Source: a virus | Taxonomy: Duplodnaviria; Caudoviricetes | IMG/VR virus record: IMGVR_UViG_3300009161_000021 | Reading direction: 5' to 3' (one strand) | DNA length: 64,000 nucleotides | Shown here: positions 11,898 through 37,083 of the stretch, in pieces | How the letters are laid out: every line of letters begins with the position of its first letter | How positions within the stretch are numbered: the first letter of the stretch is position 1 | Translations under genes and position numbers: made by a program | The notes under the pieces: generated by a model | Told to the model about the DNA's origin: nothing | Database searches by the model: none | The model's input: the letters and a program-made list of their open reading frames with translations, nothing else

Positions 11898-12284
11898 TCA
11901 TCTATACCCGTAAGAGCAGACGTCGTTGTAGATGCCCTCTGCCTCATTCGCGTACTCCTTGTCGATCTCGGTTACGCACTCGACACCGTGAGTGAAAACT
12001 TCCACTGTCACAACCGGACCCTTACACTTGATCTCGGCGTGATGATCTCTCTGGTCTTCGTAGTTCATTAGCTCTTCGATAAAAGAGCGGGCCGATCTTC
12101 TGTCTCCAAATGTGTATGTCCGGCAGAGTCGCTCAGGTGACTGCTTCACGTGCCATTTGTTCTCAGACTTCGGAACAACGGGAAGAGCGCGAGTATCGAA
12201 AGAGAACTCACGTGGAAAGTACTGCGGGGGTACCTCATGCTCGAAGTACTCCCGCAGCAGGTTCGAGACCCGAGGGGTCCTCAT
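11898..12284 (-). CDS. Pterin-4a-carbinolamine dehydratase (PCD/PhhB)-like protein with N-terminal extension
   Basis: W...LCRTYTFGDRRSARSFIEEL...DHHAEI...VTVEVFTHGVECVTEIDKEYA matches the PCD HH(P/A)xI and TH...xT.xD pattern. Confidence 0.75.
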   Translation of the reverse strand: MRTPRVSNLLREYFEHEVPPQYFPREFSFDTRALPVVPKSENKWHVKQSPERLCRTYTFGDRRSARSFIEELMNYEDQRDHHAEIKCKGPVVTVEVFTHGVECVTEIDKEYANEAEGIYNDVCSYGYR

Positions 12285-14796: not shown

Positions 14797-15532
14797 ATGA
14801 ATCCGGTGGTGCCTCTGGACGTTCCAATGATATGTTGTAATCCTTTCGAAGTAAATCCTTCAGCTGCTTCTTGAGACTGTCGGTCTCATTGGGAAAATCG
14901 TTGTCGAGATATTCCTCCGCCTGAGTGATCACATTCTTCTTAACATCGACAAGGGACGTGTAGTTCTTAATCAGCTTCGCAATTTCGCCGGCATACACCT
15001 CCATATCGATCTTGGGCTTCTTGTCTTCCTGCTCGATGAGGAATCGAAGAGACTTCCTACGAAGACTTTCATTCGCGGCAGACTCTGAGTCTTCTTCGGC
15101 GGATGAGGTCGCTTTCATAAGTGCCTTGTTAACCTGCGATTTGACGGGCTCCTTAACGGGATCAGGCGCTTTCGCTTTCTTTTTTGCAGTCGCTCCGGCT
15201 GCAGCGGCTCCCGGAGCGGGTGCTGGGGTCCCTGGAATTGCGGGGGCAGCTCCGGGGGCAGCTGCGGGAGCGGGAGCGGGGACTGCTGGCGTGGCAGGCG
15301 CAGCGGGAGCTGCAGGCACTGCAGGAGCTCCGGGAGCCGCTGCAGCCGGGTCAACTGCGGGGGCAGTGCCTGCAGCAGCCGGATCGGTCGCTGGAGCTGT
15401 GGCAGCTGGATCTGCTGCGGGAGCAGTTGCGGCCGGATCAGCAGGAGGCGCCTGCTCGTAAAGATTTGACAACTTTGTGTTATACATTTCCTGAATAACA
15501 AGTCGTCTTAGCACCGAACGGCTTGTGGTCAT
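14753..15532 (-). CDS. Pro/Ala-rich hypothetical protein
   Basis: Repeats of APAADPAA(T/A); N-terminal RSVLRRLVIQE tag. Confidence 0.7.
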   Translation of the reverse strand: MTTSRSVLRRLVIQEMYNTKLSNLYEQAPPADPAATAPAADPAATAPATDPAAAGTAPAVDPAAAAPGAPAVPAAPAAPATPAVPAPAPAAAPGAAPAIPGTPAPAPGAAAAGATAKKKAKAPDPVKEPVKSQVNKALMKATSSAEEDSESAANESLRRKSLRFLIEQEDKKPKIDMEVYAGEIAKLIKNYTSLVDVKKNVITQAEEYLDNDFPNETDSLKKQLKDLLRKDYNISLERPEAPPDSYAVGAGAGGGGGAA

Positions 15533-16254
15533 TTTGCAGCCTCCATCATTCTCTCGACCTTCCTGATTCGATCTTCAATGATTGACCACTTGAGCTCTTT
15601 CATCATCGAGAAGATGTACGATTTTCTATCCTTCAGGTAATCTCGATAATAAGAGTGTTCCCAGCAATCGAGAACAATCACTGGGTAGCTCGAAAATGGA
15701 ACTCCCGAGTTATGAAGATCCACCACAACGTTGACGTAGCGCTTGAGGAACATGTTGTACGCCATAACGACCCAACCGTTCCTTGAGCTCATCGCGCAGG
15801 CGATAAAGTCTCTTTGCCACGCGTCGAAGCTGCCCCAGTCACGTTCGATGCGCATGTAGGCGAGCGAGTCCATCGCCAGGGTCGATCTCACATCAGAGAT
15901 GTTCTCAAAGAACATTCCATGGAGAAATGCTGCATTTAGATTGTGTGTCTCGTCCATCTTCATGTTTCTGAAGGTGGAGTTGTTTGGGTTCGCGTTCTCA
16001 CGATCCGCAGAGTCTAGACCCGCAGATATCTCATTGAGGGATTTTATGTACCCGTCCATGAGCTCCTGGTGCGCAGCCTTGTTTTCCTCGCTAAGCTTCT
16101 CAGTCCTCAGGTCGAATTTGGTTGTCGACACGACGTAAGCTTCGTTCAAAGGCTTCGGGCTTTGCTCCTGCTTCTTCGGAAGAGTCAGAGATTCGCGAAT
16201 CACGTCAACGATCTCTTTCTCAGATAGACCTGCGATCTTTAATGGGTCTTTCAT
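15529..16254 (-). CDS. sod: Fe/Mn superoxide dismutase-like protein with N-terminal extension
   Basis: AHQEL, FLHGMFF and VLDCWEHSYY provide four candidate metal ligands; WGSFDAWQRDF...GWV. Confidence 0.85.
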   Translation of the reverse strand: MKDPLKIAGLSEKEIVDVIRESLTLPKKQEQSPKPLNEAYVVSTTKFDLRTEKLSEENKAAHQELMDGYIKSLNEISAGLDSADRENANPNNSTFRNMKMDETHNLNAAFLHGMFFENISDVRSTLAMDSLAYMRIERDWGSFDAWQRDFIACAMSSRNGWVVMAYNMFLKRYVNVVVDLHNSGVPFSSYPVIVLDCWEHSYYRDYLKDRKSYIFSMMKELKWSIIEDRIRKVERMMEAAK

Positions 16255-18048: not shown

Positions 18049-18474
18049 CTAAGTATCTTCCACTTCGCATAACTGACGAACCTTGATGCCAGCATTTGTA
18101 AGAAGAGTGATTCCAGACTCGTCTCGATACCTGTCGATGTAGATGACCTCGTCTATCTTCGCGTTTATGATCGCTTTCGCGCACATGCGACAAGGGTTGA
18201 GGCTCACATACATCTTCTTCCGTTTCGGGCTGTTGAAGTCAAGCTTGATAAGAGCGTTCACTTCAGCGTGAATGAATCCAGAATCTCCAGGATTGTCGGA
18301 CTCCCGACAATTCGGTCCTCCGGCATGATCGCCATTGTACCCGAGTGATAGGAGCTGCGTGTTGTCATCAGCTACAATTATCGCCGCAACTTTGAATGAG
18401 GGATCTGAGGATCTCTTGGAGATCGTAAAAACGACATCGGACCAGATCCGATCCCAGGAGGGTCGTGAGCTCAA
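18049..18474 (-). CDS. dCMP deaminase (ComEB family)
   Basis: LSLGYNG, HAEVNAL, SLNPCRMCAKAIINAKIDEVIY. Confidence 0.93.
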   Translation of the reverse strand: MSSRPSWDRIWSDVVFTISKRSSDPSFKVAAIIVADDNTQLLSLGYNGDHAGGPNCRESDNPGDSGFIHAEVNALIKLDFNSPKRKKMYVSLNPCRMCAKAIINAKIDEVIYIDRYRDESGITLLTNAGIKVRQLCEVEDT

Positions 18475-19319
18475 GTGTTCACCGCGTCGAAGATTGTTTC
18501 AATGCTAACGTTGGGAGGCAAGCTGAATCCAGCAGCTTTCCGATGACCGCCACCGCCGAACTTCTTCGCGACCTCGCTCACGTCAGCGTCATCATGGTGC
18601 GCTCGAAGGCTTGCCTTAACACGGCGGCTCTCATGATCGTAGTACCAGATCACGGAGAAATCGCACTTTGGAGAGAGAGCAGCGCCGATTTCAGACATCC
18701 AATGTGAAGAGTTAACCACGAGCACGCTCTTTCCAGCGATCTTCCGATGTGAGGCGTTCTTCGTAATCTTGGAGATAACGGTCTTGGAGTAGGCAAGGAT
18801 GTAAGCACCGCGCTCCTGGGCACTGTCCACTTCGGAATCGTCGAGATACTTGTCGAACTCCTCAAAATCAAACTTTACCATGTCGAAGGCCGCAGCGAAC
18901 TCCTTGGAGTAGGGGATCTCCCACTTCCAAAGGTCACGATCCTCGATGAACTTGATGAGTCGAGGAGCTTCCTTCCCGGGATGGAAGAACTTCCAGGCGA
19001 GCATCGCTCCGCTGTGGTTCATGTCGAAACGCGTGCATGAGACATCATGGAGCTCGACCATAGCTGACTTGTGGTGGTCGATGATGAGGAGGTTCTTGGC
19101 CTCCTGCATCATACGCTTCGTGGTGGCGTTATCGTAGGAGAAGTCCAGGACGACCACATTCTTTCCTGTCACGTCAGGTGGAGGCTCTCCGTGCTTCGCA
19201 GCGAGGTACTCCGCCCGATCACCGAGCAGCTTCCAGGCTGCGTAAGCAGCCCCAAAACCATCGGTGCAGTTTTCATGATAGATGACGAGATCGACGCTGG
19301 ACGGTTCTAGCATATTCAC
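18471..19319 (-). CDS. DHH/DHHA1 phosphoesterase (NrnB/oligoribonuclease-like)
   Basis: YHENCTDG, LDFS, IIDHH, EDRDLW, GGGHRKAAG. Confidence 0.9.
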   Translation of the reverse strand: MNMLEPSSVDLVIYHENCTDGFGAAYAAWKLLGDRAEYLAAKHGEPPPDVTGKNVVVLDFSYDNATTKRMMQEAKNLLIIDHHKSAMVELHDVSCTRFDMNHSGAMLAWKFFHPGKEAPRLIKFIEDRDLWKWEIPYSKEFAAAFDMVKFDFEEFDKYLDDSEVDSAQERGAYILAYSKTVISKITKNASHRKIAGKSVLVVNSSHWMSEIGAALSPKCDFSVIWYYDHESRRVKASLRAHHDDADVSEVAKKFGGGGHRKAAGFSLPPNVSIETIFDAVNT

Positions 19320-19339
19320 GTAAGCTCCGGACTAAACTA

Positions 19340-19933
19340 TTATCCCACGTTCTCGTTCGGATTGCACATTATCGGGTGATGCCTGAAACACCTTGGTTCG
19401 TAGAGATTCTTCCCACCGACCTCGATCTCCTTGTCATCGTTTGTGAGCTTCGCTGTGTAGTACGCATCGCTTCCGCAAGCTGGGCACACAGCAGGGCACT
19501 TTTCGACCTTCGTAGCGAACGGTAGAAGTGAGGTCACCTCCTCGAAGGGACGACACTTCGCGCTCAGATCAAGGGTCGCGATCAGCACGTCAACACCACT
19601 CCGCATGATCTCCAGGGCCGCTGGTGCCACCCCGTCTATCATGAAGGCTTCGTCTATGGCCACCGCATCAATATCACCCTTGATGCTTCTGAAGTGGTTC
19701 AGAAGGGCAGCTCCCGAGCTGACGCAGGTAGCAGGCCACTTGGCACCTGAGTGGGTGCAGATCTGAGATTGCTCGTATCTCGCGTCCATCGAGGGCTTGT
19801 ACGCTATCACCGTCCGACCCTGAAGCTTAAGACGCTCGATGGACGCGATCAGACGTGATGTCTTGGAGCCCCACATCGGACCACAGAAAATAACAAGATT
19901 TGGATTACCCTGCATTCGTTCTCCCGTAATCAT
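19340..19933 (-). CDS. tdk: Thymidine kinase (type II)
   Basis: GPMWGSKTSRL P-loop, IDEAFM, CPACG...YEPRCFRHH lasso/zinc region. Confidence 0.93.
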   Translation of the reverse strand: MITGERMQGNPNLVIFCGPMWGSKTSRLIASIERLKLQGRTVIAYKPSMDARYEQSQICTHSGAKWPATCVSSGAALLNHFRSIKGDIDAVAIDEAFMIDGVAPAALEIMRSGVDVLIATLDLSAKCRPFEEVTSLLPFATKVEKCPAVCPACGSDAYYTAKLTNDDKEIEVGGKNLYEPRCFRHHPIMCNPNENVG

Positions 19934-20327
19934 CCTCTATTATGATCGAACCGTCGTTCGACTTGTCGCCGATCTCAATGACAACACTTTCTTCGAGAGC
20001 CTCAAGTCTGTATGGACACTCGGATTGCACGTTGAAGACATCGCCTGGAGAAAGAATTCTCTCTTCCCAGGGATACTTCTCTGGCTTTTCAATCGTCCGC
20101 GAGCTGCCAAACGTCACCTTAACAAGTCCGCTCATTATCAGGAAGAACTCATTCTTAATCTTATGAAACTTCAGGCTCGTTCTATGGCCCTTCCTGATCG
20201 TGATGAGCTTTCCCTGAAAGTCAGCAGTGGAGCTCCAAACCTGAGCAGTGCCCCACGGCTTTATCTCGTTCGATGACTTGGTGACCCAAGCATGCTTAGG
20301 AGCCCTCATTAAAATCCCACCAATCAA
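19905..20327 (-). CDS. Cupin-fold protein (phosphomannose-isomerase type II/sugar-isomerase-like)
   Basis: KPWG...TSLKFHKIKNEFFLIMSG...GDVFNV...YRLEALEESVVIEI...EDDYGR; real start probably MRAPKH. Confidence 0.75.
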   Translation of the reverse strand: MIGGILMRAPKHAWVTKSSNEIKPWGTAQVWSSTADFQGKLITIRKGHRTSLKFHKIKNEFFLIMSGLVKVTFGSSRTIEKPEKYPWEERILSPGDVFNVQSECPYRLEALEESVVIEIGDKSNDGSIIIEDDYGRTNAG

Positions 20328-21312
20328 GAGTCATCTTAAGACCATCCACAAACTTGACCTGCGGCTTCCACCCAAGAACCTGCTCAATGATCGTCACGTC
20401 CGCAAGAGTATCCCGCACATCGCCCGCGCGGACCGGTGCACTGTTCACCTCGAGGTTCGGAAACTTGAGACGAAGGAGGTCGAGGACTTCATTGTTCGAA
20501 AGTGACTCGCCCGACCCAACGTTGAAAGCGTGCCCGCGGAAGTCATGCTGAGATTCAGCTGCCAAACGATTCGCCCGAGCAACGTCCTTGACGAAGACAA
20601 GATCTCGAGTCTGGTATCCATCACCGTCAGAGCGAAGTGGACGTCCCTCCTTCAGAGCTGAGCACCACGCGGCGACTGCTGTCGAGTAGGGAGACTTGCC
20701 GTCCTGGCCGGGACCGTAGACGTTGAAGTAACGTAGGCAGACACTCTTCTGCTGGTAGAGTCGCCCGAAGAGGGTCAGGTAATCCTCGATCATCCGCTTC
20801 TGCAGACCGTACGGAGACTGAGGGTTGGAGGGCGAGAACTCGGTGGTTGGCAGCTGGTCGATCTCGCCGTAGACGGACGAAGACGAGGAGAACACGAACT
20901 TGGTGCTTCCACCACGAATCGCATCGAGGAGAGCAAGGGTGCGAGTGACGTTGAGATCGTTCGATTCGAAAGGAAGCTGGACGGAGTACTCAACGCGTGG
21001 CATCGCAGCGAGATGGAAGATGACATCGTAGAGCCCAGCCTTGGAGCGAGACAGAATCTCACGATGAGCGAAATCGCCCTCGATCACGAGAACAGAGCCA
21101 GCGACCCTTTCGGACTCAGGGTGCTTCAGCTCGAAAGCCCCAATAAGATCGGCAGGAACTGCTCGAAATGAGATTCCGTTGAGAGAATCAAGTGAGCCGT
21201 TGGACATGTCGTCGATAACGTCGACGATGTAATCGTTCATGATGAGCTCACGAACAACATGAGAACCGATAAAACCACATCCGCCCGTTACAAGGGCACG
21301 CTTGTTATTCAT
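20296..21312 (-). CDS. NAD-dependent UDP-sugar C4-epimerase/dehydratase (extended SDR, WbpP/GalE-like)
   Basis: TGGCGFIGSH, FHLAA, SSSSVYG, YGLQK, LRYFNVYGPGQD, GDGYQTRDLVFV, RAGDVRDTLAD. Confidence 0.95.
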   Translation of the reverse strand: MNNKRALVTGGCGFIGSHVVRELIMNDYIVDVIDDMSNGSLDSLNGISFRAVPADLIGAFELKHPESERVAGSVLVIEGDFAHREILSRSKAGLYDVIFHLAAMPRVEYSVQLPFESNDLNVTRTLALLDAIRGGSTKFVFSSSSSVYGEIDQLPTTEFSPSNPQSPYGLQKRMIEDYLTLFGRLYQQKSVCLRYFNVYGPGQDGKSPYSTAVAAWCSALKEGRPLRSDGDGYQTRDLVFVKDVARANRLAAESQHDFRGHAFNVGSGESLSNNEVLDLLRLKFPNLEVNSAPVRAGDVRDTLADVTIIEQVLGWKPQVKFVDGLKMTLDWWDFNEGS

Positions 21313-21314
21313 TT

Positions 21315-22313
21315 TTACCTCTTGAAGAAATGATAGCCCTGATGATTTGTCGAGAGAAGGTATCTCTGGGCAAGCTTTTGATCCTTCATCTTTCTAGCCC
21401 TAAACGAGCAGAGAATGTTTCTCCAGTCATTAACAAGCTGGTAGAAGGCTGGATCATCCATCTCGTCGCTGAGCTTGGGACTGATAAGCATGAAACCGTC
21501 GAGGAATTCGCCATCGGTCATCTTGTGAACCCGCTCCTCAACTCGCATCAGATCATGGATCGGAAAAGATCGAGGATATGCTGGCATCGGACGGCCAAGA
21601 TTGTCGCTTGAATTCGCAATCGCGTCCAGCATCTCGAAATCACGTTCATAGCAGTGGAGAGAATTTGATGTGTGTACGTACTCGCCAAGTTCGACGTTAA
21701 GCTCATTCGCCAGAACCTCCTGCATAGTTGTGAAAGCTGGAACATCGTATGCGATCCCAAGGATGATGTCGCTGGATCGCATGTTGACGTGAAGGTGGAG
21801 CTTACCCTCGCGAATGAAGAATTGGAGCGCGAGAGTGCATGGAACGTCCTTCACGGCGTAGATCGAATCGTCAGGGGTCCTGATATGAATAACAGCGCGG
21901 CGACTGTCAGGATCGCGCTTGAGCTCGCTCTTGACGTACTCCCACTGATTCAGCCCACCATCAGCGATCCTCGGATGAAGCTTGAAGATTCGAGCGCCGT
22001 ACGCGGAGTTTGCAGTCTTTCCATCATCGCTGATGTCCTTCCAAAAGGAAGCGTATCTCGAGATCCATTCGGTGGAGTTGCTTCCGCTCATGTACCAGAG
22101 AGTCTCAGCCACAAAGTAGGAGAGCGAGAAGTTGCGAGCTTCGATGTAAGGAAGGCGATCTCGAACGTTCTTGATCCTGAACTGAACCCCCAGCTTCTCC
22201 TTGATCTTCATGCCACGAGGAGAAGAGATGAAATCGGACTCATCTCGAATCAAACGGCAAAGATCGACGTAAGCATGTGAGAAATTTCCGTAAGTCTTCA
22301 TACCTTCAGCCAC
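21315..22313 (-). CDS. Thymidylate-synthase homologue, predicted dCMP hydroxymethylase/methylase
   Basis: AETLWY, DSRRA, VPCT (catalytic Cys), MRSSDIILGIAYD (Asp at the position of ThyA Asn177), SLHCY. Confidence 0.8.
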   Translation of the reverse strand: MAEGMKTYGNFSHAYVDLCRLIRDESDFISSPRGMKIKEKLGVQFRIKNVRDRLPYIEARNFSLSYFVAETLWYMSGSNSTEWISRYASFWKDISDDGKTANSAYGARIFKLHPRIADGGLNQWEYVKSELKRDPDSRRAVIHIRTPDDSIYAVKDVPCTLALQFFIREGKLHLHVNMRSSDIILGIAYDVPAFTTMQEVLANELNVELGEYVHTSNSLHCYERDFEMLDAIANSSDNLGRPMPAYPRSFPIHDLMRVEERVHKMTDGEFLDGFMLISPKLSDEMDDPAFYQLVNDWRNILCSFRARKMKDQKLAQRYLLSTNHQGYHFFKR

Positions 22314-22813
22314 TCCCTAATTTCGAGCGTCTCGCGCTCAAGATTCTCGTCATCAACCCAGATCGTGAGAACCTCGCACTTCGTCCAGCCCTCGAACTCC
22401 TGATAGAGGCTGTCAAGCCCCTCGAGCGCGTGAGCGTCAATGTAACTGTGGAGGTCGTCGCGTATCCCATTATAGCTCTTCCGGCGACAAATGACAATCT
22501 TACCGCCGGCTTCAGCAAACTTCTCGTCAACCTTGCGAAGGACGACGTCATCCGTCTCACGATTGAAGTGCCTCGAGTAGACCCATTCCGATGCATAGTT
22601 CCTGTCCATGATGGCGCTAGCCTTTGTCTGGCAGAGAAAATCTGCTAGAAACGTCGCTCCGTACGTCAGCAGATTCTTGAAGTAGCTTGGATCACGAAGG
22701 TCGGTGAACCACTCACCCGAGTTCTTAAAAACAGGAATCCCGAGCTGCCGAGAAAGCTCGGCTGCCATCTCCGACTTTCCGCATCGATCTGGACCCTCGA
22801 ATGTGATAAGCAT
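22298..22813 (-). CDS. Deoxynucleoside monophosphate kinase (thymidylate-kinase fold)
   Basis: ITFEGPDRCGKS P-loop, IMDRNYASEWVY. Confidence 0.85.
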   Translation of the reverse strand: MLITFEGPDRCGKSEMAAELSRQLGIPVFKNSGEWFTDLRDPSYFKNLLTYGATFLADFLCQTKASAIMDRNYASEWVYSRHFNRETDDVVLRKVDEKFAEAGGKIVICRRKSYNGIRDDLHSYIDAHALEGLDSLYQEFEGWTKCEVLTIWVDDENLERETLEIREWLKV

Positions 22814-22814
22814 C

Positions 22815-23870
22815 TTAACCTCGCTTTGCGTGTTGCTCGATCAAATCAATCTTATGCGACGGGCTGAAATCTACAACCTGGCGAAGCGCTTCCTCCTGAC
22901 GATTGATGATATCGGTCCGCTCAGCAACGCTCATCTTGGAGAGACGGGTCACAGCTCGAACGACGTCCTCTGGATCGTTGACGAGGAAATCGCCCAGACC
23001 GACCGGACGAGCGTGAACGTACTCGTTCGGGATGAGAGACACAACCCCCGCCTGAATCGCTTCCGTGAATCGCATCGTGATGTTACCGTAGGGTGTGTAA
23101 TCGTCGCGGGTGATGTGAGTCACAGCGATGGAGTTGTTGATGACTCCGAAGATCTCCTTGTAAGCGAGGCGGGTACCAAAAGCGACGTGAGGATTCTCCT
23201 GCAGAAGAACGCTCGGGTCCTTACGTTCCGGGCTCCTTTCGAGCCAGTTACCCCACACCTTCGTCTGAATCCCGCGAGTCCTGAGGGAGTGACTCGGGAC
23301 GGAGTAGTACTTTCGGAACTGCGGATCGCGATCGTAGTTGTTACCGACGTAAGTGTAGTTGTACGAGTACTCAACGGGCTTGAAGAGACGCCGAGCCGAA
23401 GAAGCCCATGGCATCGAGATCCTGGCTCGGGTCTGTTCACGCGGCTTGATGCAAGCATCAGCGAGTTGCGCGTTGGGCCATCGAAGCTCCTCCTCCGGAG
23501 TCATCTTCAGATCACCGTCATGGATGATGATGGGAACTCCCTTCGCGTGATAGTGATCGAGGAGCTCGCACTGACGCTTGTAATCGGGCTCAGTAGCACG
23601 CTCGCCGCCGATGGACTCGTCGTTCTTCCAGGTAGGCCAACGCCACTCGACGAAGAGAACGTCTCCCTCGGGGAATCCAGCGTCATCGTACTCGACGCCA
23701 GGGTATGGCTCATCATCACGACGCTTCTGCACCTGAACAACAGTATGTCCGTGACGATGCATCTCGTCCACGAGATCGACTCGACCACCACGATAGTGGT
23801 CAGGAGTGTTCGAAACTGTCTGCTTCTCGAATGGGGTCACGAAACCCCAGAATGAATATAGAATTCGCAT
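22815..23870 (-). CDS. GT-B glycosyltransferase, T4 DNA beta-glucosyltransferase-like
   Basis: C-terminal YGNITMRFTEAIQAGVVSLIPNEY...FLVNDPEDVVRAVTRL resembles the T4 BGT C-terminal segment as recalled (FITLRVWETMASDAVMLIDEEF...FYVNNRAELIDRVNEL). Confidence 0.7.
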   Translation of the reverse strand: MRILYSFWGFVTPFEKQTVSNTPDHYRGGRVDLVDEMHRHGHTVVQVQKRRDDEPYPGVEYDDAGFPEGDVLFVEWRWPTWKNDESIGGERATEPDYKRQCELLDHYHAKGVPIIIHDGDLKMTPEEELRWPNAQLADACIKPREQTRARISMPWASSARRLFKPVEYSYNYTYVGNNYDRDPQFRKYYSVPSHSLRTRGIQTKVWGNWLERSPERKDPSVLLQENPHVAFGTRLAYKEIFGVINNSIAVTHITRDDYTPYGNITMRFTEAIQAGVVSLIPNEYVHARPVGLGDFLVNDPEDVVRAVTRLSKMSVAERTDIINRQEEALRQVVDFSPSHKIDLIEQHAKRG

Positions 23871-23878
23871 CTTTTACC

Positions 23879-26800
23879 TCACATAACCTTGATTTTCTTA
23901 CCCTTTGTCGACAACCCGAAGTCAGACCGATCGACCTCGGCAACGCAGAGCGTGTATGGTTCAAAAGCAATCTTACCGTCCCAGTCCCACATGAACATCT
24001 TTTCCGTGTTTCCAGCCTCACCCATCACCTGAAGCATGAGATAGGGCTTCCCGTTCTTCGTCTTCTTCTCGACAGAGCTCACGATAACGAACCAGTAGAC
24101 ATCAAGTCTCTCCCAGTTATCGATGGAGTAAACCTCCTTGTCCTTAAATTTCTGACGAAGTTCGGTGGAGACCAGGGAGATTGGATCCATCTTGCCCGAG
24201 AGCTCGATCTGCATCAGGGCAATCTCGCGACGGGTCCACTCGGGCATGCCCTCGGTCTCGACAGTGAGCTCGCGGAACTTCTTGATGCCGCGCTGTGGAT
24301 CCTTCTTCGCCCACTTCTTGATGTCGTCAGCATTCTCGATGATGACGTGGTGCATCTGCTTCCAGGACGAGAACTGCTTTCCGCTTCCAACGATTCCCAT
24401 CGAATCGAACGCGTTTGCCTTGATGAGTGCCTCGAGAGCGCGCTTGTTGAACTTGGAGGGTCGCCACTGACCGTCCTCCTTCCAGAGCATCTCCTCGATG
24501 CTGCGGTAAGGTCGGCATGCCACGATCTCCTCGATTGCTGTCTCACCGACTCCCTTGATAGTGTTGAAGGATGGGATGAGGAGCTTACGCTCAGAGTCGA
24601 CCGACCACTGATTCGTGGAGAGGTTGATGTCGACGTTGCCGATATCGTACCCCATCTTCTTCACATCGGAGATCGCCTGGGCACGATCGTCAGGGTTACC
24701 GATCATCGACTCCATGTAGGCGCAGAGCCACTCGGATTCGAAGTACGTGAGGAGCCAGGCGCAGTAGAAGGAATCGATAGCGTAGGCCAGGGCGTGGGAG
24801 AGGTTGAACCCGTACCCCGCGAAGAAGAGGATGTCGTCCCAGAGCTTAGAGGCGACGGATTCCCTGATGCCATTGCCCACCGCGCCGTTGACGAAGTTGT
24901 CCTTCATCGCTTTCGCCTTCTTCATCGACTCCTCAGGGTTACCGCCCTGACGCTTCAGGATGTTCTTTCGAACCTTGTCGCACTCGGACTTTGGGAACCC
25001 AGCCACCACGTTGCAGAGCTGCATGAGCTGCTCCTGGAAGATGATGCATCCGAATGTCGGCTCGAGGACCTGCTTGATGAGTGGATGCTTGTAGTCGATG
25101 TCTCGCGGGTTCGCCTTCGCCTCGAGGTAGAGCTTGTCAACCTTCGCCGCGAGCGGACCAGGTCGGAAGACCGAAGTCAGGGTGGCGATGTCGATGATCG
25201 ATCGTGGCTTGGCGTTCTGGAAGAGACGCTGGGCACCCTTGCTGGTGAGCTGAAAGACACCTGGCGTTCGGGATGTTGCCTCGTGGTAGACGTTCTCATA
25301 CACCTTCTGATCATCGAAGTTGATAACGTCGGTTGCCATGTGCTCATCGAACCACTTCTTGACCTCCTGGAACGTCGGGTTCTTGATCCCATGATGACGC
25401 TGAAGAATTAGCTCGATCGTTCGATGGATCGTTCGAAGCGTTTCAAGCCCCAGCAGGTCGAACTTAACCCACCCCAGCATCTCGAGATGCTTGTAGTTCA
25501 TGCCCTCGACCCAGGGGGTCTGCTGCTCTCCCTTCGCCATGATGAGTGGCATCCGCTCGGCAATACGTTCCGAGATGATGACACCACCAGCGTGTCGCCC
25601 CAGAGCCTTGTTCTGCTTGAACAGGACCTTGATGGATTCCGAGACCTGTGGGTGGCGATCGATGAAGTTTCGGAAGCTCTCGCAGTGCTCGTAGCTGTCC
25701 TCATAGGTCAGGACGAACAGGTTCTTGTCATCCCCAACCTTCTTCGTTGCGTTCATGACCTCACGTTCGACGGTCTTCAGGGCCTCGTTAACCTCCTCGA
25801 GCGGAATGTCATAGAGACGGGAGACGTCGCGGATGAGTGTCTTCAGCTTGAAGGTGTTGTAGTTCGAGATTGGAACGATGTTCTCGCCGCCAAACTTCTC
25901 ACGTAGGATCGAGAGTAGGAGATCTCGGTTCTCGACGTCGGTGTCGATGTCGGGTAGACCCTCGCGGTCAGGGGATAGGAATCGCTCGAAGAGCAGACCG
26001 TACTTGATCGGATCAACGTCAGTGATGCCGAGGACGTAGCAGACGAGGGAGCCCGCACCGGAACCTCGACCGACGCCGACGAACATCTGCTCCTTCGCAG
26101 CGGAGATGATCTCCTTCATCGTGAGGAAGTAGGACGAGAAGTCCTTCTGCTTGATGACATCGAGCTCGTACTTCGCACGTTCGACGTACACAGGATCGGT
26201 GTGGAAACCCTTCGCGATGAGGCCCTGCTTCACGGATTCGACAAGAGCCTGGTTCGCCGTCTTACCCTCAGGGATGACGTAGCTCGGAAGCTTGACGGAG
26301 CGATCAGGTTGGACGTCACCGATCTCCTCATGGGCGAGATGCCAGGTTCTCTCGACCGCCTTGCGAATGAGCTCCTCCTCACCACGGTAGAAATCATCGG
26401 TCCCGCGGGAGATCATGAACTCATCCCACACCTGCGATGCGTTCTTCGGGTAGAGCTCACACTTCAGCTGATCCTTGCTCTTTGGGATGGAATCCGCCGA
26501 GAGGTCAGCGTAGTTGAGCCAGCCGAGCTTCTTGTAGATCTCGCGCTCCTTCCAGTGCTCAGGGCGGGCATAGTGGGAGTCGCAGGTAACAACGAGCTGG
26601 TCGGTCATGCCCTGACGCTTCGCGAACTCCATGATCGCGCGGTTGACGATGTGCTGGGCTGGGAGACGGTTGAACTGCAGCTCGAGCATCACGTTCTTGC
26701 GACCTACAGCCCAAGCAAGACCATCGAACGAGTTACCGACTCGGTTGATGACGCGCTCCATGATCGACGGATCATTGAGAAGCCGGCTGTTCAGGCTCTC

Positions 26801-27502
26801 GAAGCTGTGCTCCTGCAGCTCGCGGAAGACCTCGAAGGCGAGCGGACCACCGATGCAGGCAGTGGAGACGATGAAGTTATCGTCCTCCTGTGCCTCCTTT
26901 AGCATCGCGAGGTCGACACGTGGGAACTTGTAGAAGCCCTCCGAGTAACCACGGCTCACGAGACCGAAAAGCCGTTCGAGACCCTTGCTGTGACGCGGTA
27001 GGACAACGAGGTGATGACGACGGTTGATTGGGTTGAAGTGCTTCGTGGACTTCGTCTCGTCCTCGTTCTCGATCGTGAGGGCGGAGGCGTCGGTGTCGAT
27101 GCCGATAGTCTCATCGTTCTCGTCGGTGACAGCGACGATCGGAGTCACGATGCTCTCGGGCTTCTCCTTCGCCTTCGCGTGGCTCTTGCGGTCTCGCTTG
27201 AGCTGCTGCCACTCGTGGTACTCAGCCTGCCAGGCATTGAGATCCGGGTGGATGTACATCTCACAACCCGGGATGAACTTCAGGTCCTTCCCCGCTTTTT
27301 TCAGCTTGTCAGCGTGAAGCCACGCGTGACCGAAGCCGTTCATCTGACCGTGATCGGTCAGGCTCCAACCATCGAGACCGTTCTCGAGGCAGAAGTCAAT
27401 GTGCTCTTGTGGGTAACCAAGTCCATCAAACGTCGAAAACCCCGAGTGCGAATGAATTCCAAAGAACTTTTCTGGACGTTTAAGTTCGCTAAGGTCTGAC
27501 AT
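23879..27502 (-). CDS. dnaE: DNA polymerase III alpha subunit (family C, DnaE) with PHP domain
   Basis: IHSHSGFSTFDG, LTDHG, GCE, TCDSHY (PHP); GRGSGAGSL, FERFL, PDIDTD, HAGGVII, KFDLLGL, GFNLSHA. Confidence 0.98.
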   Translation of the reverse strand: MSDLSELKRPEKFFGIHSHSGFSTFDGLGYPQEHIDFCLENGLDGWSLTDHGQMNGFGHAWLHADKLKKAGKDLKFIPGCEMYIHPDLNAWQAEYHEWQQLKRDRKSHAKAKEKPESIVTPIVAVTDENDETIGIDTDASALTIENEDETKSTKHFNPINRRHHLVVLPRHSKGLERLFGLVSRGYSEGFYKFPRVDLAMLKEAQEDDNFIVSTACIGGPLAFEVFRELQEHSFESLNSRLLNDPSIMERVINRVGNSFDGLAWAVGRKNVMLELQFNRLPAQHIVNRAIMEFAKRQGMTDQLVVTCDSHYARPEHWKEREIYKKLGWLNYADLSADSIPKSKDQLKCELYPKNASQVWDEFMISRGTDDFYRGEEELIRKAVERTWHLAHEEIGDVQPDRSVKLPSYVIPEGKTANQALVESVKQGLIAKGFHTDPVYVERAKYELDVIKQKDFSSYFLTMKEIISAAKEQMFVGVGRGSGAGSLVCYVLGITDVDPIKYGLLFERFLSPDREGLPDIDTDVENRDLLLSILREKFGGENIVPISNYNTFKLKTLIRDVSRLYDIPLEEVNEALKTVEREVMNATKKVGDDKNLFVLTYEDSYEHCESFRNFIDRHPQVSESIKVLFKQNKALGRHAGGVIISERIAERMPLIMAKGEQQTPWVEGMNYKHLEMLGWVKFDLLGLETLRTIHRTIELILQRHHGIKNPTFQEVKKWFDEHMATDVINFDDQKVYENVYHEATSRTPGVFQLTSKGAQRLFQNAKPRSIIDIATLTSVFRPGPLAAKVDKLYLEAKANPRDIDYKHPLIKQVLEPTFGCIIFQEQLMQLCNVVAGFPKSECDKVRKNILKRQGGNPEESMKKAKAMKDNFVNGAVGNGIRESVASKLWDDILFFAGYGFNLSHALAYAIDSFYCAWLLTYFESEWLCAYMESMIGNPDDRAQAISDVKKMGYDIGNVDINLSTNQWSVDSERKLLIPSFNTIKGVGETAIEEIVACRPYRSIEEMLWKEDGQWRPSKFNKRALEALIKANAFDSMGIVGSGKQFSSWKQMHHVIIENADDIKKWAKKDPQRGIKKFRELTVETEGMPEWTRREIALMQIELSGKMDPISLVSTELRQKFKDKEVYSIDNWERLDVYWFVIVSSVEKKTKNGKPYLMLQVMGEAGNTEKMFMWDWDGKIAFEPYTLCVAEVDRSDFGLSTKGKKIKVM

Positions 27503-29444: not shown

Positions 29445-29828
29445 TCAGTAGCCGTTCTTGAGCCTCTCGCAGATCTTGTTGTGCTTCTTGACGTAGGCTG
29501 CATGCAGCTCATCGGGAGTGACACCGACTAGCTTCAGGGTCGTAAAAAAGTACTTCATCGCGTCCACGATCTCCTCGAGGAATGCCTCCCGATCGAGATG
29601 TGGGACCTCGGTCTGCCGGTGGGACTTCGCGTTCTTCAGCTCCTGGAGAGCTTCGAACATCTCCTCGACACCCTTCAGCGTGACGTCCCTGAGAAGGATC
29701 TGTGACTCCTTCTTAGTCACATCGACGGGCCACTGGGGATAGTAACCCTGGAAACGCTCGCAGAGAAGTTGCATGAACTCCTCGCGGAGCTCAAACATCT
29801 CCTCTAGCTTGTCAGTTGACGTCGGCAT
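29445..29828 (-). CDS. Dimeric all-alpha dUTPase/dCTPase (T4 gp56/MazG-like)
   Basis: Start reassigned to MPTSTDKL; EEMFEALQELKNAKSH and EEIVDAMKYF acidic helices; YVKKHNKICER. Confidence 0.8.
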   Translation of the reverse strand: MPTSTDKLEEMFELREEFMQLLCERFQGYYPQWPVDVTKKESQILLRDVTLKGVEEMFEALQELKNAKSHRQTEVPHLDREAFLEEIVDAMKYFFTTLKLVGVTPDELHAAYVKKHNKICERLKNGY

Positions 29829-30051
29829 TCTGCATGCCCTCAGCCGCGAGCTCGTCAGCCTTATCCGAGAGACGCCTGACGGCATCGAGGAAAGCTTGGT
29901 TGTCATCCTCGTTGATGGTGAGCTTGTCACCATCGACCGTGAGTCGAAGAGTCCTGAGGTTGTCAATGATGTCGGTACCAGTCAGCAGAGCGAGCTGGAG
30001 GAGGTCAACGACACGGACGATAGCATGATCTGAAAGAGTGTATGTGCTCAT
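29812..30051 (-). CDS. Hypothetical protein
   Basis: 79 aa, GGAG SD, TATAAT upstream. Confidence 0.7.
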   Translation of the reverse strand: MSTYTLSDHAIVRVVDLLQLALLTGTDIIDNLRTLRLTVDGDKLTINEDDNQAFLDAVRRLSDKADELAAEGMQNADVN

Positions 30052-30103: not shown

Positions 30104-30913
30104 TCAGCTCTGTCGAGCTGGGACCCACCAAGTGGTTCTTCCGTCGAGGGTCTCCTCCTTTATGATCTCCTCTCCGTCTTCGTCAGTCTTTCTTCCGTAG
30201 CAGAGAAGTTCATTTCCGTAACCACCCGACTCATCATCAAACCCCTTATATGATTTGATTGTTGCCCCCTGAGACTCGTATGAGGCTCTGAGCACTCTCT
30301 TAACGCTTTCGTTGAGCGCCTCGAACTCCTCCAGACTCAGTGAGTCGACCTTGCGATGGGGAGAGAGCCGGGCGAGCCAGAGGGAATCAGCCTTCACGTA
30401 GTTACCGACCCCAGCGACCACACCTTGATCCATGAGCGCCTGGGCGAGTGTCCACTTCGGTTTCCTCAGCATCGCAGTCTGGAATCGCTCGTGGCTCACG
30501 TCCTCAGCCAGCATATCAGGTCCGAGAGTCTTCAACTTCGCAGCCAGCGTCCGCCGGCCCTGGGACCACTTCAGAGTCCCGAAGTTCCGGGTGTCATTGT
30601 AGTATACGTCCGTCCCATCATCGAGGCTCAGACGCACTCTGGCGTGGCGCGATGCACTTCTGGACCAGTGACCTGTCATGCCCAGCGTCGACCAGATCGA
30701 TGAGTCACCGCCGTCGAGCAGGATGTAGATGAACTTGCCGTGGCATCCAGCTCCGACGACCCGTTTGGGCAGTTCGGAGACAAGATCGGCATGACCCTCG
30801 AAAGGCTTCCTGGCGTAACGACCCGACAGGATCTGGACACCGGTGATCGTTCGATCGGTGAGAGCTCGAGCGAGCCCTTCGGCAGCTAACTTGCACTCTG
30901 CACCCTCTGGAAT
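30104..30913 (-). CDS. mutM: Fpg/Nei-family DNA glycosylase/AP lyase, apparent ATT (AUU) start
   Basis: AGGAGGT-N5-ATT CCA GAG GGT GCA GAG gives (M)PEGAE; GKFI, LGMTG, YYNDTRNFG, LGPD, AGVGNYVKADSL (H2TH), GRTTWWVPARQ. Confidence 0.85.
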   Translation of the reverse strand: MPEGAECKLAAEGLARALTDRTITGVQILSGRYARKPFEGHADLVSELPKRVVGAGCHGKFIYILLDGGDSSIWSTLGMTGHWSRSASRHARVRLSLDDGTDVYYNDTRNFGTLKWSQGRRTLAAKLKTLGPDMLAEDVSHERFQTAMLRKPKWTLAQALMDQGVVAGVGNYVKADSLWLARLSPHRKVDSLSLEEFEALNESVKRVLRASYESQGATIKSYKGFDDESGGYGNELLCYGRKTDEDGEEIIKEETLDGRTTWWVPARQS

Positions 30914-30954
30914 TTCGCACCTCCTAATTCATATTGTATAGGAAGTTCCCGATT

Positions 30955-34291: not shown

Positions 34292-34717
34292 CTAACTATT
34301 TCCGTCGCCGAGCGTTTTCCTCAGGTGCTCGTGATAATCGTTGAGAGCGTGATCGTTCGGTTGCACCGCGCGCCAGTCGCCGAGAATGAAGATGCGGTAA
34401 GCATCGTCCCCGTACTTACCGATACCGTGCAGGTCCTTCGCCTGCTTCCAGCCGCCCGCAGCGTACTCAGCGGACATCCGCTTGAGGGTCTGCGTGCGCT
34501 TCCGTTGCATGCCGAGGGACTTGATGAGGTCCTCGAGATCGGCGTCGGGAGCCGACGCAAGCGCGCCCGGAGTGGGCCAGCGTTGGAACATCTCCTCGAC
34601 AACCGGCTCCATCTGAGCGCGCTTCGTTAGGTTTAGGCACAGGCAGCAGACAAGGATCTTCCATCCATCTGGCCAATACTTTTCCTGAATGAGACCGAAC
34701 TTAGGAGGTGTCCACAT
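34292..34717 (-). CDS. MBD4-like HhH-GPD mismatch DNA glycosylase
   Basis: WKILVCCLCLNLT, WPTP, DLHGIGKYGDDAYRIF...WRAVQPNDHALNDY (catalytic Asp position retained). Confidence 0.85.
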   Translation of the reverse strand: MWTPPKFGLIQEKYWPDGWKILVCCLCLNLTKRAQMEPVVEEMFQRWPTPGALASAPDADLEDLIKSLGMQRKRTQTLKRMSAEYAAGGWKQAKDLHGIGKYGDDAYRIFILGDWRAVQPNDHALNDYHEHLRKTLGDGNS

Positions 34718-35178: not shown

Positions 35179-35847
35179 CTAGTACGGTGGATGAAAAGCT
35201 TCCTTCACATCGTCACTGAAACCGAACGCTTCGATCGTGTGGTGGAACGGACTTCCGGGAATATCATGCACGAGATGCAGCATCTTTTGAGCAAGCTCAC
35301 GTACCTCGAGCTGCGCGTCCTGCTTCATCCGAAGGCCGAGAAAGTGATTGAAAGAACGCCAGTTGAACATGAGATCCATTGTCACCTGATTACCGTAGGG
35401 CAGGTAGAATCGGGCGGACTCCTTAGCTCGCTTGCGATCCATACCACACTCGACAAGACGCTCGAGAGTCTCGTGGTAGCGCATGACAGCGTCCTCCATG
35501 AAAGCGATGTACTTCGCCTTCTCAATCATAGGCCAATCGTTTGGAACGACGTACTTGTCATCCTTCAGCTCCTTGTAGCGAGCTGACTCAGCGTTGATCG
35601 AAACTCCGATACGATGCTTTAGAAGGTGGATGTGAGTCGCCGTGTCAACGGTAACGAGAAAATGCAGCGAACTCTTCTCGAAAGGAGTCTCATGACCATT
35701 CTCAGCCAGCATCTTCAGGAGGGCTGGAACCCGCTTTCTCTTCTCCTCTGTGAGATCCCGACTCGTGCTCGTCCACGCTGAGAGAGCGTGCGCTTCGTCC
35801 CCACCGTACCAACCGACCAGCTCCACCCTGTTGTCCTGAAACGGCAT
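35179..35847 (-). CDS. thyX: Flavin-dependent thymidylate synthase
   Basis: GHETPFE, KHRIGVSINAESARY (RHRx7SxR variant), ESARFYLP, NWRSFNHFLGLR, AQLEVR. Confidence 0.95.
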   Translation of the reverse strand: MPFQDNRVELVGWYGGDEAHALSAWTSTSRDLTEEKRKRVPALLKMLAENGHETPFEKSSLHFLVTVDTATHIHLLKHRIGVSINAESARYKELKDDKYVVPNDWPMIEKAKYIAFMEDAVMRYHETLERLVECGMDRKRAKESARFYLPYGNQVTMDLMFNWRSFNHFLGLRMKQDAQLEVRELAQKMLHLVHDIPGSPFHHTIEAFGFSDDVKEAFHPPY

Positions 35848-36052
35848 TTCTCAAACTGCTCCTAATGTGTTTATCCCAAATGATCTCAAAAAACCACTGA
35901 AGGAGAGTCAGCGTGGTCCCTGTGATGAGGACGATCCCGGCAGACTCTCCCGCGCTTCCAGTGAAAAAGTAAGCTATCGAGAAACCGTAGCACATGGAGA
36001 AAGCTCTCCAAGCTACGACTTTAGCGAGCAGCTCTACTTTTGCTGATCTCAA
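35702..36052 (-). CDS. DUF2061-like small membrane protein
   Basis: LAKVVAWR...two hydrophobic segments...FEIIW; 3' tail overlaps thyX. Confidence 0.6.
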   Translation of the reverse strand: MRSAKVELLAKVVAWRAFSMCYGFSIAYFFTGSAGESAGIVLITGTTLTLLQWFFEIIWDKHIRSSLRNAVSGQQGGAGRLVRWGRSARSLSVDEHESGSHRGEEKAGSSPPEDAG

Positions 36053-37083
36053 ATTACCTCACAGATCGTCTCAAGTAAAAGTCGGGTTACAACGTACGGA
36101 TCAACATTCGCGCAGGGTCGACGATCCTCGAGGTATCCGCAACCGTTCTGAGCAACGTGAAGTGGGATGCGAATGGAAGCGCCTCGATCGCTCACTCCCC
36201 AGCGAAAATCCTTGTAGGAACAGGTCTCGTGATGTCCCGTGAGTCGCTGCTCGATGCCATGACCGTAGTTCGTGATGTGCCAGCTATGGGAGCGGCGGAG
36301 ACGCTCGCACGCTGCTTCGATGTGATCCATGCCTCCCTTCTCCCGCATTTTCCGGGTCGAGAAGTTCGTGTGAGCACCAGCACCGTTGAGCTCCGCGACA
36401 GGCTTCGGGTCGAGTTTCGCAACGACGCCATGCTTCTCACCGATTCGATAGAGGAGCCATCGCGCGAAGATGAGATGGTCAGCGACCGTGATAGCGTCGG
36501 CAGTCCCGATCTGGAATTCCCATTGCCCGGGCATCACCTCGGCATTGACACCGCAGATAGCGAGACGAGAATCAAGGCAGGCAGCCATGTGTTCCTCAAC
36601 GAGCTCACGACCGAAGACCTCATCCGAGCCAACGCCGCAGTAGAAGGGTCCCTGCTGGGGTGGGTAACCACCTGTCGGCCAACCGAGGGGCTTGCCGTCC
36701 TTGAAGAGAGTGTACTCCTGCTCGATTCCGAAGAGAGGCTCGTGATCGAGCGTCTTCGTGACAACGTCACGTAGTCCTACGCGAGTGTTCGTAGCGTGTG
36801 GAGTTCCGTCGGAGTTGAACACCTCACACAGAACCAGGATGTGAATCCGCTCGTGATTCTTCTCCCGGGTAGGATCGAAGATCATACTCACGGGAACCAG
36901 AATGCAATCGCTTCGATCTCCCGTTGCCTGACCCGTAGACGACCCATCGAATGTCCACTGAGGAATGTCAGCTATCGTTAGGCTCTTCCCGCTCGCAGGC
37001 GTCTGAAAGATCTTCGTCTTGCTTCGGAGCTTGTGAGTGGGCAGGGTACCATCCTGCCAGATGTATTCGGCTACGATATTCAT
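36049..37083 (-). CDS. glnII: Glutamine synthetase type II
   Basis: EYIWQDG, FDGSST, GIEQEY, EVMPGQWEFQIG, NGAGAHTNFST, RLTGHHET, RGASIRIP, YLEDRRP. Confidence 0.95.
   Translation of the reverse strand: MNIVAEYIWQDGTLPTHKLRSKTKIFQTPASGKSLTIADIPQWTFDGSSTGQATGDRSDCILVPVSMIFDPTREKNHERIHILVLCEVFNSDGTPHATNTRVGLRDVVTKTLDHEPLFGIEQEYTLFKDGKPLGWPTGGYPPQQGPFYCGVGSDEVFGRELVEEHMAACLDSRLAICGVNAEVMPGQWEFQIGTADAITVADHLIFARWLLYRIGEKHGVVAKLDPKPVAELNGAGAHTNFSTRKMREKGGMDHIEAACERLRRSHSWHITNYGHGIEQRLTGHHETCSYKDFRWGVSDRGASIRIPLHVAQNGCGYLEDRRPCANVDPYVVTRLLLETICEVI

Follow-up and report, generated by a model that had tools for sequence, protein, structure and literature searches.

A predicted pathway for sugar-tagged hydroxymethylcytosine encoded behind the DnaE gene of an uncultured jumbo myovirus

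The glucosyl-hydroxymethylcytosine system of phage T4 comprises the deoxycytidine monophosphate (dCMP) hydroxymethylase gp42, the kinase gp1, gp56 and the α- and β-glucosyltransferases AGT and BGT. Other ways of decorating cytosine have been published, including glycosyltransferases (GTs) that act on 5-hydroxymethylcytosine (hmC, 5hmC) together with a partner epimerase (10.1101/2023.12.21.572611) and triads of a kinase, a GT and a thymidylate synthase (TS) homologue, in which RB69 gp45, DLP3 gp78 and RL38J1 gp214 are the putative "nucleotide kinase" (PMC13326640, Lee et al. 2026). Here we analyzed an array of eight open reading frames (ORFs) in IMG/VR record IMGVR_UViG_3300009161_000021, a stretch of 64,000 nucleotides of viral DNA (Caudoviricetes) that is referred to below as the window. 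Every ORF of the array is on the minus strand, the first of them directly follows dnaE (23879-27502), and neighbors are separated or overlap by ~30 nt at most; in the direction of transcription they encode a GT, a P-loop kinase, a TS homologue, a short-chain dehydrogenase/reductase (SDR) epimerase, a cupin, a thymidine kinase (TK), a DHH phosphoesterase and a dCMP deaminase. A sequence-only reading of this DNA had described such a tight run downstream of dnaE and had proposed that it makes and glycosylates hmC; the ORFs were found where that reading had placed them, and Pfam, PHROG and NCBIfam concurred on the family assignments. Our analysis suggests that a three-gene module within the array (TS homologue, kinase and GT) probably provides a T4-style, pre-replicative replacement of cytosine by sugar-tagged hydroxymethylcytosine.

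The real start of the TS homologue is probably the ATG at 22301. The protein matched Pfam Thymidylat_synt (E 3.8e-33) and scored well below every NCBIfam ThyA cut-off. Its best match in PDB was MilA, the CMP 5-hydroxymethylase of mildiomycin biosynthesis (E 5.6e-45, full length including the C-terminal extension), whereas ThyA reached only ~1e-22 in the same search. Both motifs pointed out by the sequence-only reading were present in the translation: VPCT, within which the catalytic Cys (E. coli Cys146) is aligned, and RSSDIILGIAYD. Alignment to E. coli ThyA also upheld the reported Asp at position 177; GIAYD aligns with Asp179 of gp42 and with the corresponding Asp of MilA, and this residue is kept in all 57 related TS genes. 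To describe the active site, E. coli ThyA, T4 gp42, RB69 gp48, RL38J1 gp216, the window protein and its relatives were aligned, and 12 positions were read in E. coli ThyA numbering (58, 80, 94, 126, 127, 143, 146, 147, 166, 167, 169 and 177). The signature EWYRRDCTRSDD occurred in the window protein and in 49 related loci and was identical to that of T4 gp42. Thus, the TS homologue carries the full active-site signature of a gp42-type dCMP hydroxymethylase. Position 143 is Asp in the window and in all related loci except two, neither the window protein nor any checked relative has lost Asp169 or Trp80, and the folate-binding residues are kept in the alignment. RB69 gp48 and RL38J1 gp216 differ from the signature by Ala at position 80 and Asn at position 169.

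These positions can be read with rules that have been tested in other TS homologues, given here in E. coli ThyA numbering: N177D selects dCMP, an acidic residue at position 143 (L143D/E, water access) goes with non-methyl products, a bulky hydrophobic residue at the same position is linked to methyl products, and D169N is the hallmark of the 5-hydroxy-dCMP synthases of RB69, DLP3 and RL38J1, which depend on flavin and O2 (PMC13326640). In MilA, Lys133' and Ala176 give the preference for CMP, and Arg and Ser represent the deoxy-specific state (PMC5175136). The window protein has Arg126' and Ser167 (DSRR and RSSD, against DSKR and RAND in MilA). In a maximum likelihood tree, the window clade was sister to the clade with T4 gp42 (support 83/85) and apart from the 5-hydroxycytosine (5hoC) synthases, the SP8 hydroxymethyluracil enzyme and ThyA; several branches of this tree are long and it was treated as supporting evidence only. 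In our best reading, the window protein is a predicted methylene-tetrahydrofolate-dependent dCMP hydroxymethylase of gp42 type. An ordinary ThyA was ruled out by the scores under all cut-offs, by Asp177 and by the presence of ThyX in the window. Separately, TS homologues with the gp42 signature were seen in two cultured phages, Lactobacillus phage ATCCB (MK504445.1, 34336-36240) and Enterococcus phage nattely; in ATCCB the adjacent gene is annotated as a beta-glucosyltransferase. These two phages could be tractable models for hmC glycosylation outside T-even phages.

The GT had no PHROG or NCBIfam match and a PDB search with its sequence gave nothing useful. Its AlphaFold2 model (predicted local distance difference test, pLDDT, 93.5) has a GT-B fold of ~350 residues, and T4 BGT was the top PDB match of this model by both Foldseek and VIA-align (Z 23.0 with 306 residues aligned to 1qkj), by a narrow margin over GT4 enzymes. 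At the sequence level, comparison of the GT family with BGT by hhalign gave E 7e-5 over the C-terminal 130 columns. A hidden Markov model (HMM) of the family, built from ~270 members, scored BGT at 51.5 bits over residues 140-349, so that only the C-terminal two thirds of BGT align, whereas T4 AGT, RB69 gp46:47 and RL38J1 gp215 gave no score; the GT profile likewise had no similarity to RL38J1 gp215. Because the family matches BGT and not these other transferases, the GT is a distant homologue of T4 BGT, in line with the C-terminal resemblance noted in the sequence-only reading. Two invariant residues, Arg267 and Glu270, align with BGT Arg269 and Glu272, the UDP-binding pair of that enzyme. 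The metagenomic family is large, with 138 word-indexed matches and, by profile search, 489 clusters at 50% identity, 133 of which were at E 1e-30 or better.

A function on DNA is suggested mainly by gene linkage. A scan of IMG/VR with the GT profile gave 57 loci, to which four places from contig look-ups were added; after collapsing at 90% GT identity, 36 non-redundant loci with at least 5 kb on both sides remained, and neighbors were counted within 6 kb of the GT. The TS homologue was present in 35/36 of these loci, DnaE in 34/36, the kinase in 32/36, the epimerase in 29/36, the cupin in 14/36 and a UDP-galactopyranose mutase in 11/36. The association of GT and TS holds down to 23-30% GT identity, including loci that have no epimerase (L059-L068). 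One locus (L043, 8001-10350) has a true gp42 orthologue (254 aa, 51% identical to T4 gp42) in place of the long MilA-like TS, beside a GT of the same family (57% identical) and the kinase (53%). Since a gp42 orthologue displaces the long enzyme here, we argue that both do the same job for the GT. The array is not a chance assembly, because it is kept in dozens of diverged metagenomic phage contigs, and the GT is predicted from this linkage to glycosylate hmC in DNA.

The reverse situation is found in sister phages L072-L075, in which dnaE is followed by a Tmk-like kinase, the epimerase, TK, DHH protein, dCMP deaminase and a superoxide dismutase (SOD)-like protein. A profile scan did not find TS, GT or gp45-type kinase at these loci or elsewhere on the same contigs (57-108 kb). 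Thus, the insertable unit is the kinase, the TS gene and usually the GT, and the rest belongs to the backbone.

The kinase of this unit was not the enzyme expected from T4. Its best PDB match was YorR (2axp), and by hhalign its family matched RB69 gp45 with a probability of 93.7% (E 1.8e-7, 135 columns), with which it has in common the P-loop and a DR-x-Y-x-S-x-W-V-Y motif. The match to RL38J1 gp214 was weak, and comparison with T4 gp1 gave no match (hhalign probability 0.8%). A search of five large relatives, of which one is 92% complete, likewise gave no gp1 homologue; two of the five have a canonical Tmk in addition to the gp45-type kinase. The P-loop kinase fold proposed in the sequence-only reading was retained; the protein is not T4 gp1-like and groups with RB69 gp45. 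The gene is kept where another protein replaces the GT (L070, L076, L081 and L083) and is absent along with the TS gene in L072-L075, where an unrelated Tmk-like protein of ~300 aa is found instead. The kinase thus tracks the TS gene in this phage group, and we infer that it may be an hm-dCMP kinase. Canonical Tmk was also seen besides the gp45-type kinase in genomes of the L041-L058 sub-lineage.

Based on sequence, the structure model and gene context, the following mechanism may be proposed. The TS-fold enzyme would turn dCMP into 5-hydroxymethyl-dCMP using methylene-tetrahydrofolate, and the gp45/YorR-type kinase would phosphorylate hm-dCMP, with host NDP kinase completing hm-dCTP. The hm-dC would then be incorporated by DnaE, and the BGT-like GT-B enzyme would move a hexose from a UDP-sugar onto the hydroxymethyl group in DNA. 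dTTP would be supplied by ThyX, TK and dCMP deaminase, and the sugar donor could be UDP-Glc from the host pool, or UDP-Gal or UDP-GalNAc provided by the adjoining epimerase. The order of hmC replacement followed by glycosylation, as first suggested, is supported by the TS signature, the BGT homology and the GT-TS linkage, but the idea that epimerase and cupin are dedicated parts of the pathway is not.

It should be noted, however, that several observations weigh against this scheme. Generic GT4 enzymes and T4 AGT come close behind BGT in the structure comparison (Z 21-22; 23.0 versus 21.9), and the function of the GT cannot be told from its fold alone. The N-terminal domain of the GT has no sequence alignment to BGT, and for the equivalent of the BGT catalytic base Asp100 there are only candidates, namely the invariant Asp96, Asp118 and Asp120. 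The epimerase is found in loci that have no TS or GT, and some GT-TS pairs have no epimerase beside them. Complete replacement of C has no support from a module-specific dCTPase, because the gp56-like protein is also present in TS-less relatives, and the TS-less contigs are themselves fragments (20-48% complete), so that the negative result covers these contigs and not whole genomes. Finally, the phosphorylation step is performed in RB69 by a gp1-type kinase, and the function of the gp45-type protein is putative there too (PMC13326640).

The first of these points bears on an unlikely alternative, in which hmC is made but the GT has a target other than DNA, such as a glycan of the host envelope, a phage protein or a small molecule, leaving bare 5hmC in the DNA. 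The GT-B/GT4 enzymes with nearly the same scores as BGT act on lipids and small molecules, the model has no feature specific to DNA binding, and epimerases and other sugar genes are common as phage auxiliary genes. It would be difficult, however, to reconcile such a role with the tie between GT and TS in all but one of the non-redundant loci, which persists at low GT identity and in differing contexts, with sequence homology that is specific to BGT rather than to AGT or other DNA GTs, and with a position after the replicase gene that mirrors the T4 order 43-42-bgt.

The remaining alternatives concern the product of the TS homologue. Phage XP12 reportedly has a TS-type dCMP methyltransferase making 5-methyl-dCMP. 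If the window enzyme were of this kind, the DNA would carry 5-methylcytosine and the GT would be unrelated; Asp177 suits any dCMP-using TS homologue and the folate-binding residues are kept, but the residue at position 143 is the Asp of gp42 and MilA and not a bulky hydrophobic one (PMC13326640), and the obligate GT partner needs a hydroxyl acceptor, which together make this reading very unlikely. A 5-hydroxy-dCMP synthase of the flavin-dependent kind found in RB69, DLP3 and RL38J1, with the GT building an ether-linked glycosyl-5hoC, is suggested by the kinase-GT-TS triad and gp45-like kinase common to those phages and by the UDP-galactopyranose mutase of sister loci, as in RL38J1. This candidate was rejected on the retained Asp169 and Trp80; D169N is absent from the window and from every relative checked, the tree sets the enzyme apart from RB69 gp48 and RL38J1 gp216, and the GT resembles neither RL38J1 gp215 nor RB69 gp46:47. 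We consider it highly improbable. It is barely credible that the enzyme uses a ribonucleotide, as MilA does, and that its product goes into a small-molecule nucleoside and not into DNA: although MilA was the best PDB match over the full length and C-terminal extension, the residues for CMP preference are replaced by Arg and Ser as in deoxy-specific enzymes, the gene lies within a phage replication and nucleotide-metabolism operon, and the scanned ORFs of the window included no MilB-like N-glycosidase. Formation of hmC followed by its glycosylation in DNA is thus the reading that we prefer.

Coordinates of all features, together with the evidence for each assignment, are collected in Table 1.

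Table 1. Features of the window that are discussed in the text
Feature	Position	Strand	Evidence
DnaE-type (family C) DNA polymerase	23879..27502	-	Pfam PHP, DNA_pol3_alpha, DNA_pol3_finger, HHH_6
GT-B glycosyltransferase, distant T4 BGT homologue	22815..23870	-	weak Pfam Glyco_trans_1_2; model, HMM, linkage
P-loop nucleotide kinase, RB69 gp45/YorR type	22298..22813	-	hhalign, PDB match
TS-fold enzyme, long MilA-like scaffold, predicted dCMP 5-hydroxymethylase	21315..22313	-	signature, PDB match, tree
GalE/WbpP-like UDP-hexose 4-epimerase (GalE-like SDR)	20296..21312	-	TIGR01179 galE, PDB matches
Small cupin, like C-terminal type II phosphomannose-isomerase domain	19905..20327	-	Pfam MannoseP_isomer E 1e-6
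Thymidine kinase	19340..19933	-	Pfam TK E 4e-34; NF003296
DHH/DHHA1 phosphoesterase (NrnA/RecJ-like)	18471..19319	-	phrog_4771 E 1e-79; Pfam DHH, DHHA1
dCMP deaminase	18049..18474	-	Pfam dCMP_cyt_deam_1 E 6e-19; phrog_174
All-alpha NTP pyrophosphatase, remotely gp56-like	29445..29966	-	phrog_12184 E 7e-12
ThyX, flavin-dependent thymidylate synthase	35179..35847	-	TIGR02170; phrog_85
Pterin-4a-carbinolamine dehydratase	11898..12284	-	
Protein with Fe/Mn superoxide-dismutase C-terminal domain	15529..16254	-	
Fpg/Nei DNA glycosylase	30104..30925	-	
Small HhH-GPD base-excision glycosylase	34292..34717	-	Pfam E 3e-8
Glutamine-synthetase-like protein	36049..37083	-	Gln-synt_N, Gln-synt_C
Ribonucleotide reductase large subunit with HNH-endonuclease-like insert	37738..41163	-	

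Several genes that the sequence-only reading had counted as pathway parts turned out to have a wider distribution. The epimerase matched TIGR01179 galE at E 1e-50, but under its cut-off, and its PDB matches were 4zrm, WbgU and WbpP, the latter two over the full length. Comparison with E. coli GalE revealed the Rossmann GxxGxxG motif and the Ser/Tyr/Lys triad; the Asp/Glu motif of dehydratases is lacking, and the Y299 gatekeeper position is taken by Thr. These residues are compatible with UDP-Glc/Gal or UDP-GlcNAc/GalNAc as a substrate. Orthologues with 47-50% identity occupy the same position in L072-L075, loci without TS, GT and kinase, and 7/36 GT loci have no epimerase nearby. The epimerase is therefore not a dedicated partner of the GT but a backbone gene and a possible donor supplier, and it says little about the sugar, because epimerase and GT-TS occur apart. 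TK and dCMP deaminase were both found in TS-less relatives, as was the DHH protein (up to 84% identity). Sister phages with neither TS nor GT nor kinase still carry the epimerase, TK, DHH protein and dCMP deaminase as well as the gp56-like pyrophosphatase; these five are therefore backbone genes of this phage group and are not supported as dedicated parts of the pathway. TK is predicted to serve dTTP supply and the dCMP deaminase to feed dUMP to ThyX; the role of the DHH phosphoesterase is putative. The cupin, whose start is probably the ATG at 20309, is likewise not supported as a pathway part: it is present in a minority of the GT loci and most of its HxH metal ligands are lost. A PDB search with its sequence gave nothing useful; its AlphaFold2 model (pLDDT 92) is closest to the cupin domains of AlgA/XanB/ManC (template modeling score 0.72). 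As an additional observation, the dCMP deaminase gene has the SOD-like gene downstream in almost every relative, including those without TS.

Two genes elsewhere in the window had been brought into the scheme. A separate ThyX as a source of dTMP was confirmed by a curated cut-off (TIGR02170, 106.9 bits versus 87.9), and this enzyme can supply dTMP, as far as its sequence indicates. It adjoins the gene for the glutamine-synthetase-like protein. The proposed gp56-like dUTPase/dCTPase, whose real gene is probably 29445-29828, is indeed an all-alpha NTP pyrophosphatase with weak similarity to gp56 (Pfam dUTPase_2 E 4e-4, below cut-off; BLASTP against the gp56 C-terminus E 2e-4), but a pathway-dedicated role was not supported, with orthologues of 49-56% identity in three TS-less contigs.

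A sugar other than glucose is possible, though less likely than not. It is raised by the 11 sister loci in which the UDP-galactopyranose mutase, which needs UDP-galactose, is inserted beside the GT, between TS and GT (L001:8880-10004 and 10 other non-redundant ones, e.g., L019, L021, L030, L044 and L062). RL38J1 provides a precedent, with base-proximal galactose and a phage-encoded mutase (PMC13326640), and many GTs acting on TET-made 5hmC require a partner epimerase (10.1101/2023.12.21.572611). In L001, genes for a sugar nucleotidyltransferase and a HAD phosphatase also lie upstream of dnaE, and one for an MT-A70 methyltransferase lies downstream. The mutase, nucleotidyltransferase and phosphatase carried by some relatives are absent from the 64-kb window. 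In L041-L058 (e.g., L041:9010-10029), a second, distant SDR paralogue follows the GT and is 25-28% identical to the epimerase.

The GT slot itself is variable. In L076 (2632-8001), a Ter-type ATP-grasp protein (430 aa), a carbamoyltransferase (628 aa) and a 232-aa protein replace the GT between kinase and TS, and this set could represent a different, non-sugar decoration of hmC. Three further loci (L070:5669-6991, L081:6074-7366 and L083:6673-8001) have proteins of 430-442 aa without Pfam match in the slot between kinase and TS or epimerase. A broader picture, which we regard as doubtful in its entirety, would make the position after dnaE a swap site for hmC-decoration modules in an abundant clade of uncultured jumbo phages, with genomes that are all copied by a family C polymerase: the window phage might add galactose or GalNAc through its WbpP-like epimerase, giving an undescribed base, sister phages might add galactofuranose through the mutase, and others might use the ATP-grasp protein and carbamoyltransferase for a non-sugar hmC.

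The remaining genes of the window fit a large myovirus, with a tail sheath, a T4-type baseplate protein, gp32, UvsX, DnaB, ribonucleotide reductase, a GroEL-like chaperonin and a sigma factor. The source is an uncultured jumbo myovirus replicating with DnaE, and the family C assignment of the replicase in the sequence-only reading was borne out by its Pfam domains. No near-identical DNA was detected among phage records, tblastn of the GT and of the kinase gave zero matches in 50,697 phage records, and both DnaE and the tail sheath were <33% identical to any of these records; thus, no cultured phage is close to the window phage. In a scan for promoters and terminators, such sites were no more frequent than in shuffled sequence, and the scan did not delimit the operon. 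Other genes were noted in passing. The N-terminal catalytic domain of the Fpg/Nei glycosylase lies upstream of the first ATG (30679), and a non-ATG start is therefore needed; a related phage (L004) also has an Fpg gene. Together with the HhH-GPD protein, this makes two glycosylases near the modification module. In another relative (L002, 1-9659), dnaE is split by an intein and other insertions, and the same relative carries a pterin-4a-carbinolamine dehydratase gene (20544-20894), as does the window.

If the predicted pathway is correct, T4-type cytosine replacement would reach a widespread uncultured lineage of ~200-290 kb phages replicating with DnaE, a family C polymerase would accept hm-dCTP, and a large unnamed branch would be added to the BGT family. 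Any trouble met when DNA of this lineage is cloned or sequenced would then also be explained by heavy base modification. With sugar genes that vary around a conserved kinase-TS core, these phages form a natural series in which new DNA glycans and 5hmC-labelling enzymes may be sought. The module would vary a known anti-restriction strategy rather than introduce a new principle, given that GT-epimerase pairs acting on 5hmC and triads of kinase, GT and TS have both been published. It differs in the MilA-like TS scaffold, a kinase of gp45 and not gp1 type, a very divergent BGT relative, the DnaE replicase and the variable neighboring sugar genes.

Compared with T4, the window module has the same TS active-site signature as gp42, a GT distantly homologous to BGT, a location just after the replicase gene as in the 43-42-bgt order, a separate route to dTMP, and a dCMP deaminase and TK. 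It differs in that the TS homologue is built on the long MilA-like scaffold (332 aa versus 246) and is only 28% identical to gp42, that the kinase is unrelated to gp1, that there is no AGT homologue, that the replicase is DnaE and not a family B polymerase as in T4, that the gp56-like protein is not module-specific, and that sugar-nucleotide genes adjoin the module. The glycosyl-5hoC clusters of RB69, DLP3 and RL38J1 (PMC13326640) have in common with the window the triad of nucleotide kinase, first GT and TS homologue; RB69 has the homologous kinase gp45, and the mutase of the Rhizobium phage RL38J1 recurs in sister loci of the window. However, Asp169 and Trp80 of the window enzyme predict hydroxymethylation and not hydroxylation, its GT is not similar to the first transferases of these clusters, and arabinose-activation genes are absent. 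MilA (PDB 5jnh, 5b6d) resembles the TS homologue over the full length and has Asp at both 143 and 177, but its Lys133' and Ala176 are Arg and Ser in the window, and the window gene is part of a phage replication operon and not of an antibiotic gene cluster. Finally, the phage methyltransferase/TET pathways to 5hmC also place a DNA GT next to a sugar epimerase, and most of these GTs needed that partner, with Hex-, HexNAc- or HexA-5hmC as products (10.1101/2023.12.21.572611). There, 5hmC arises after replication by methylation and oxidation, whereas in the window the TS homologue would produce it ahead of replication, and the window-type epimerase also occurs without a GT.

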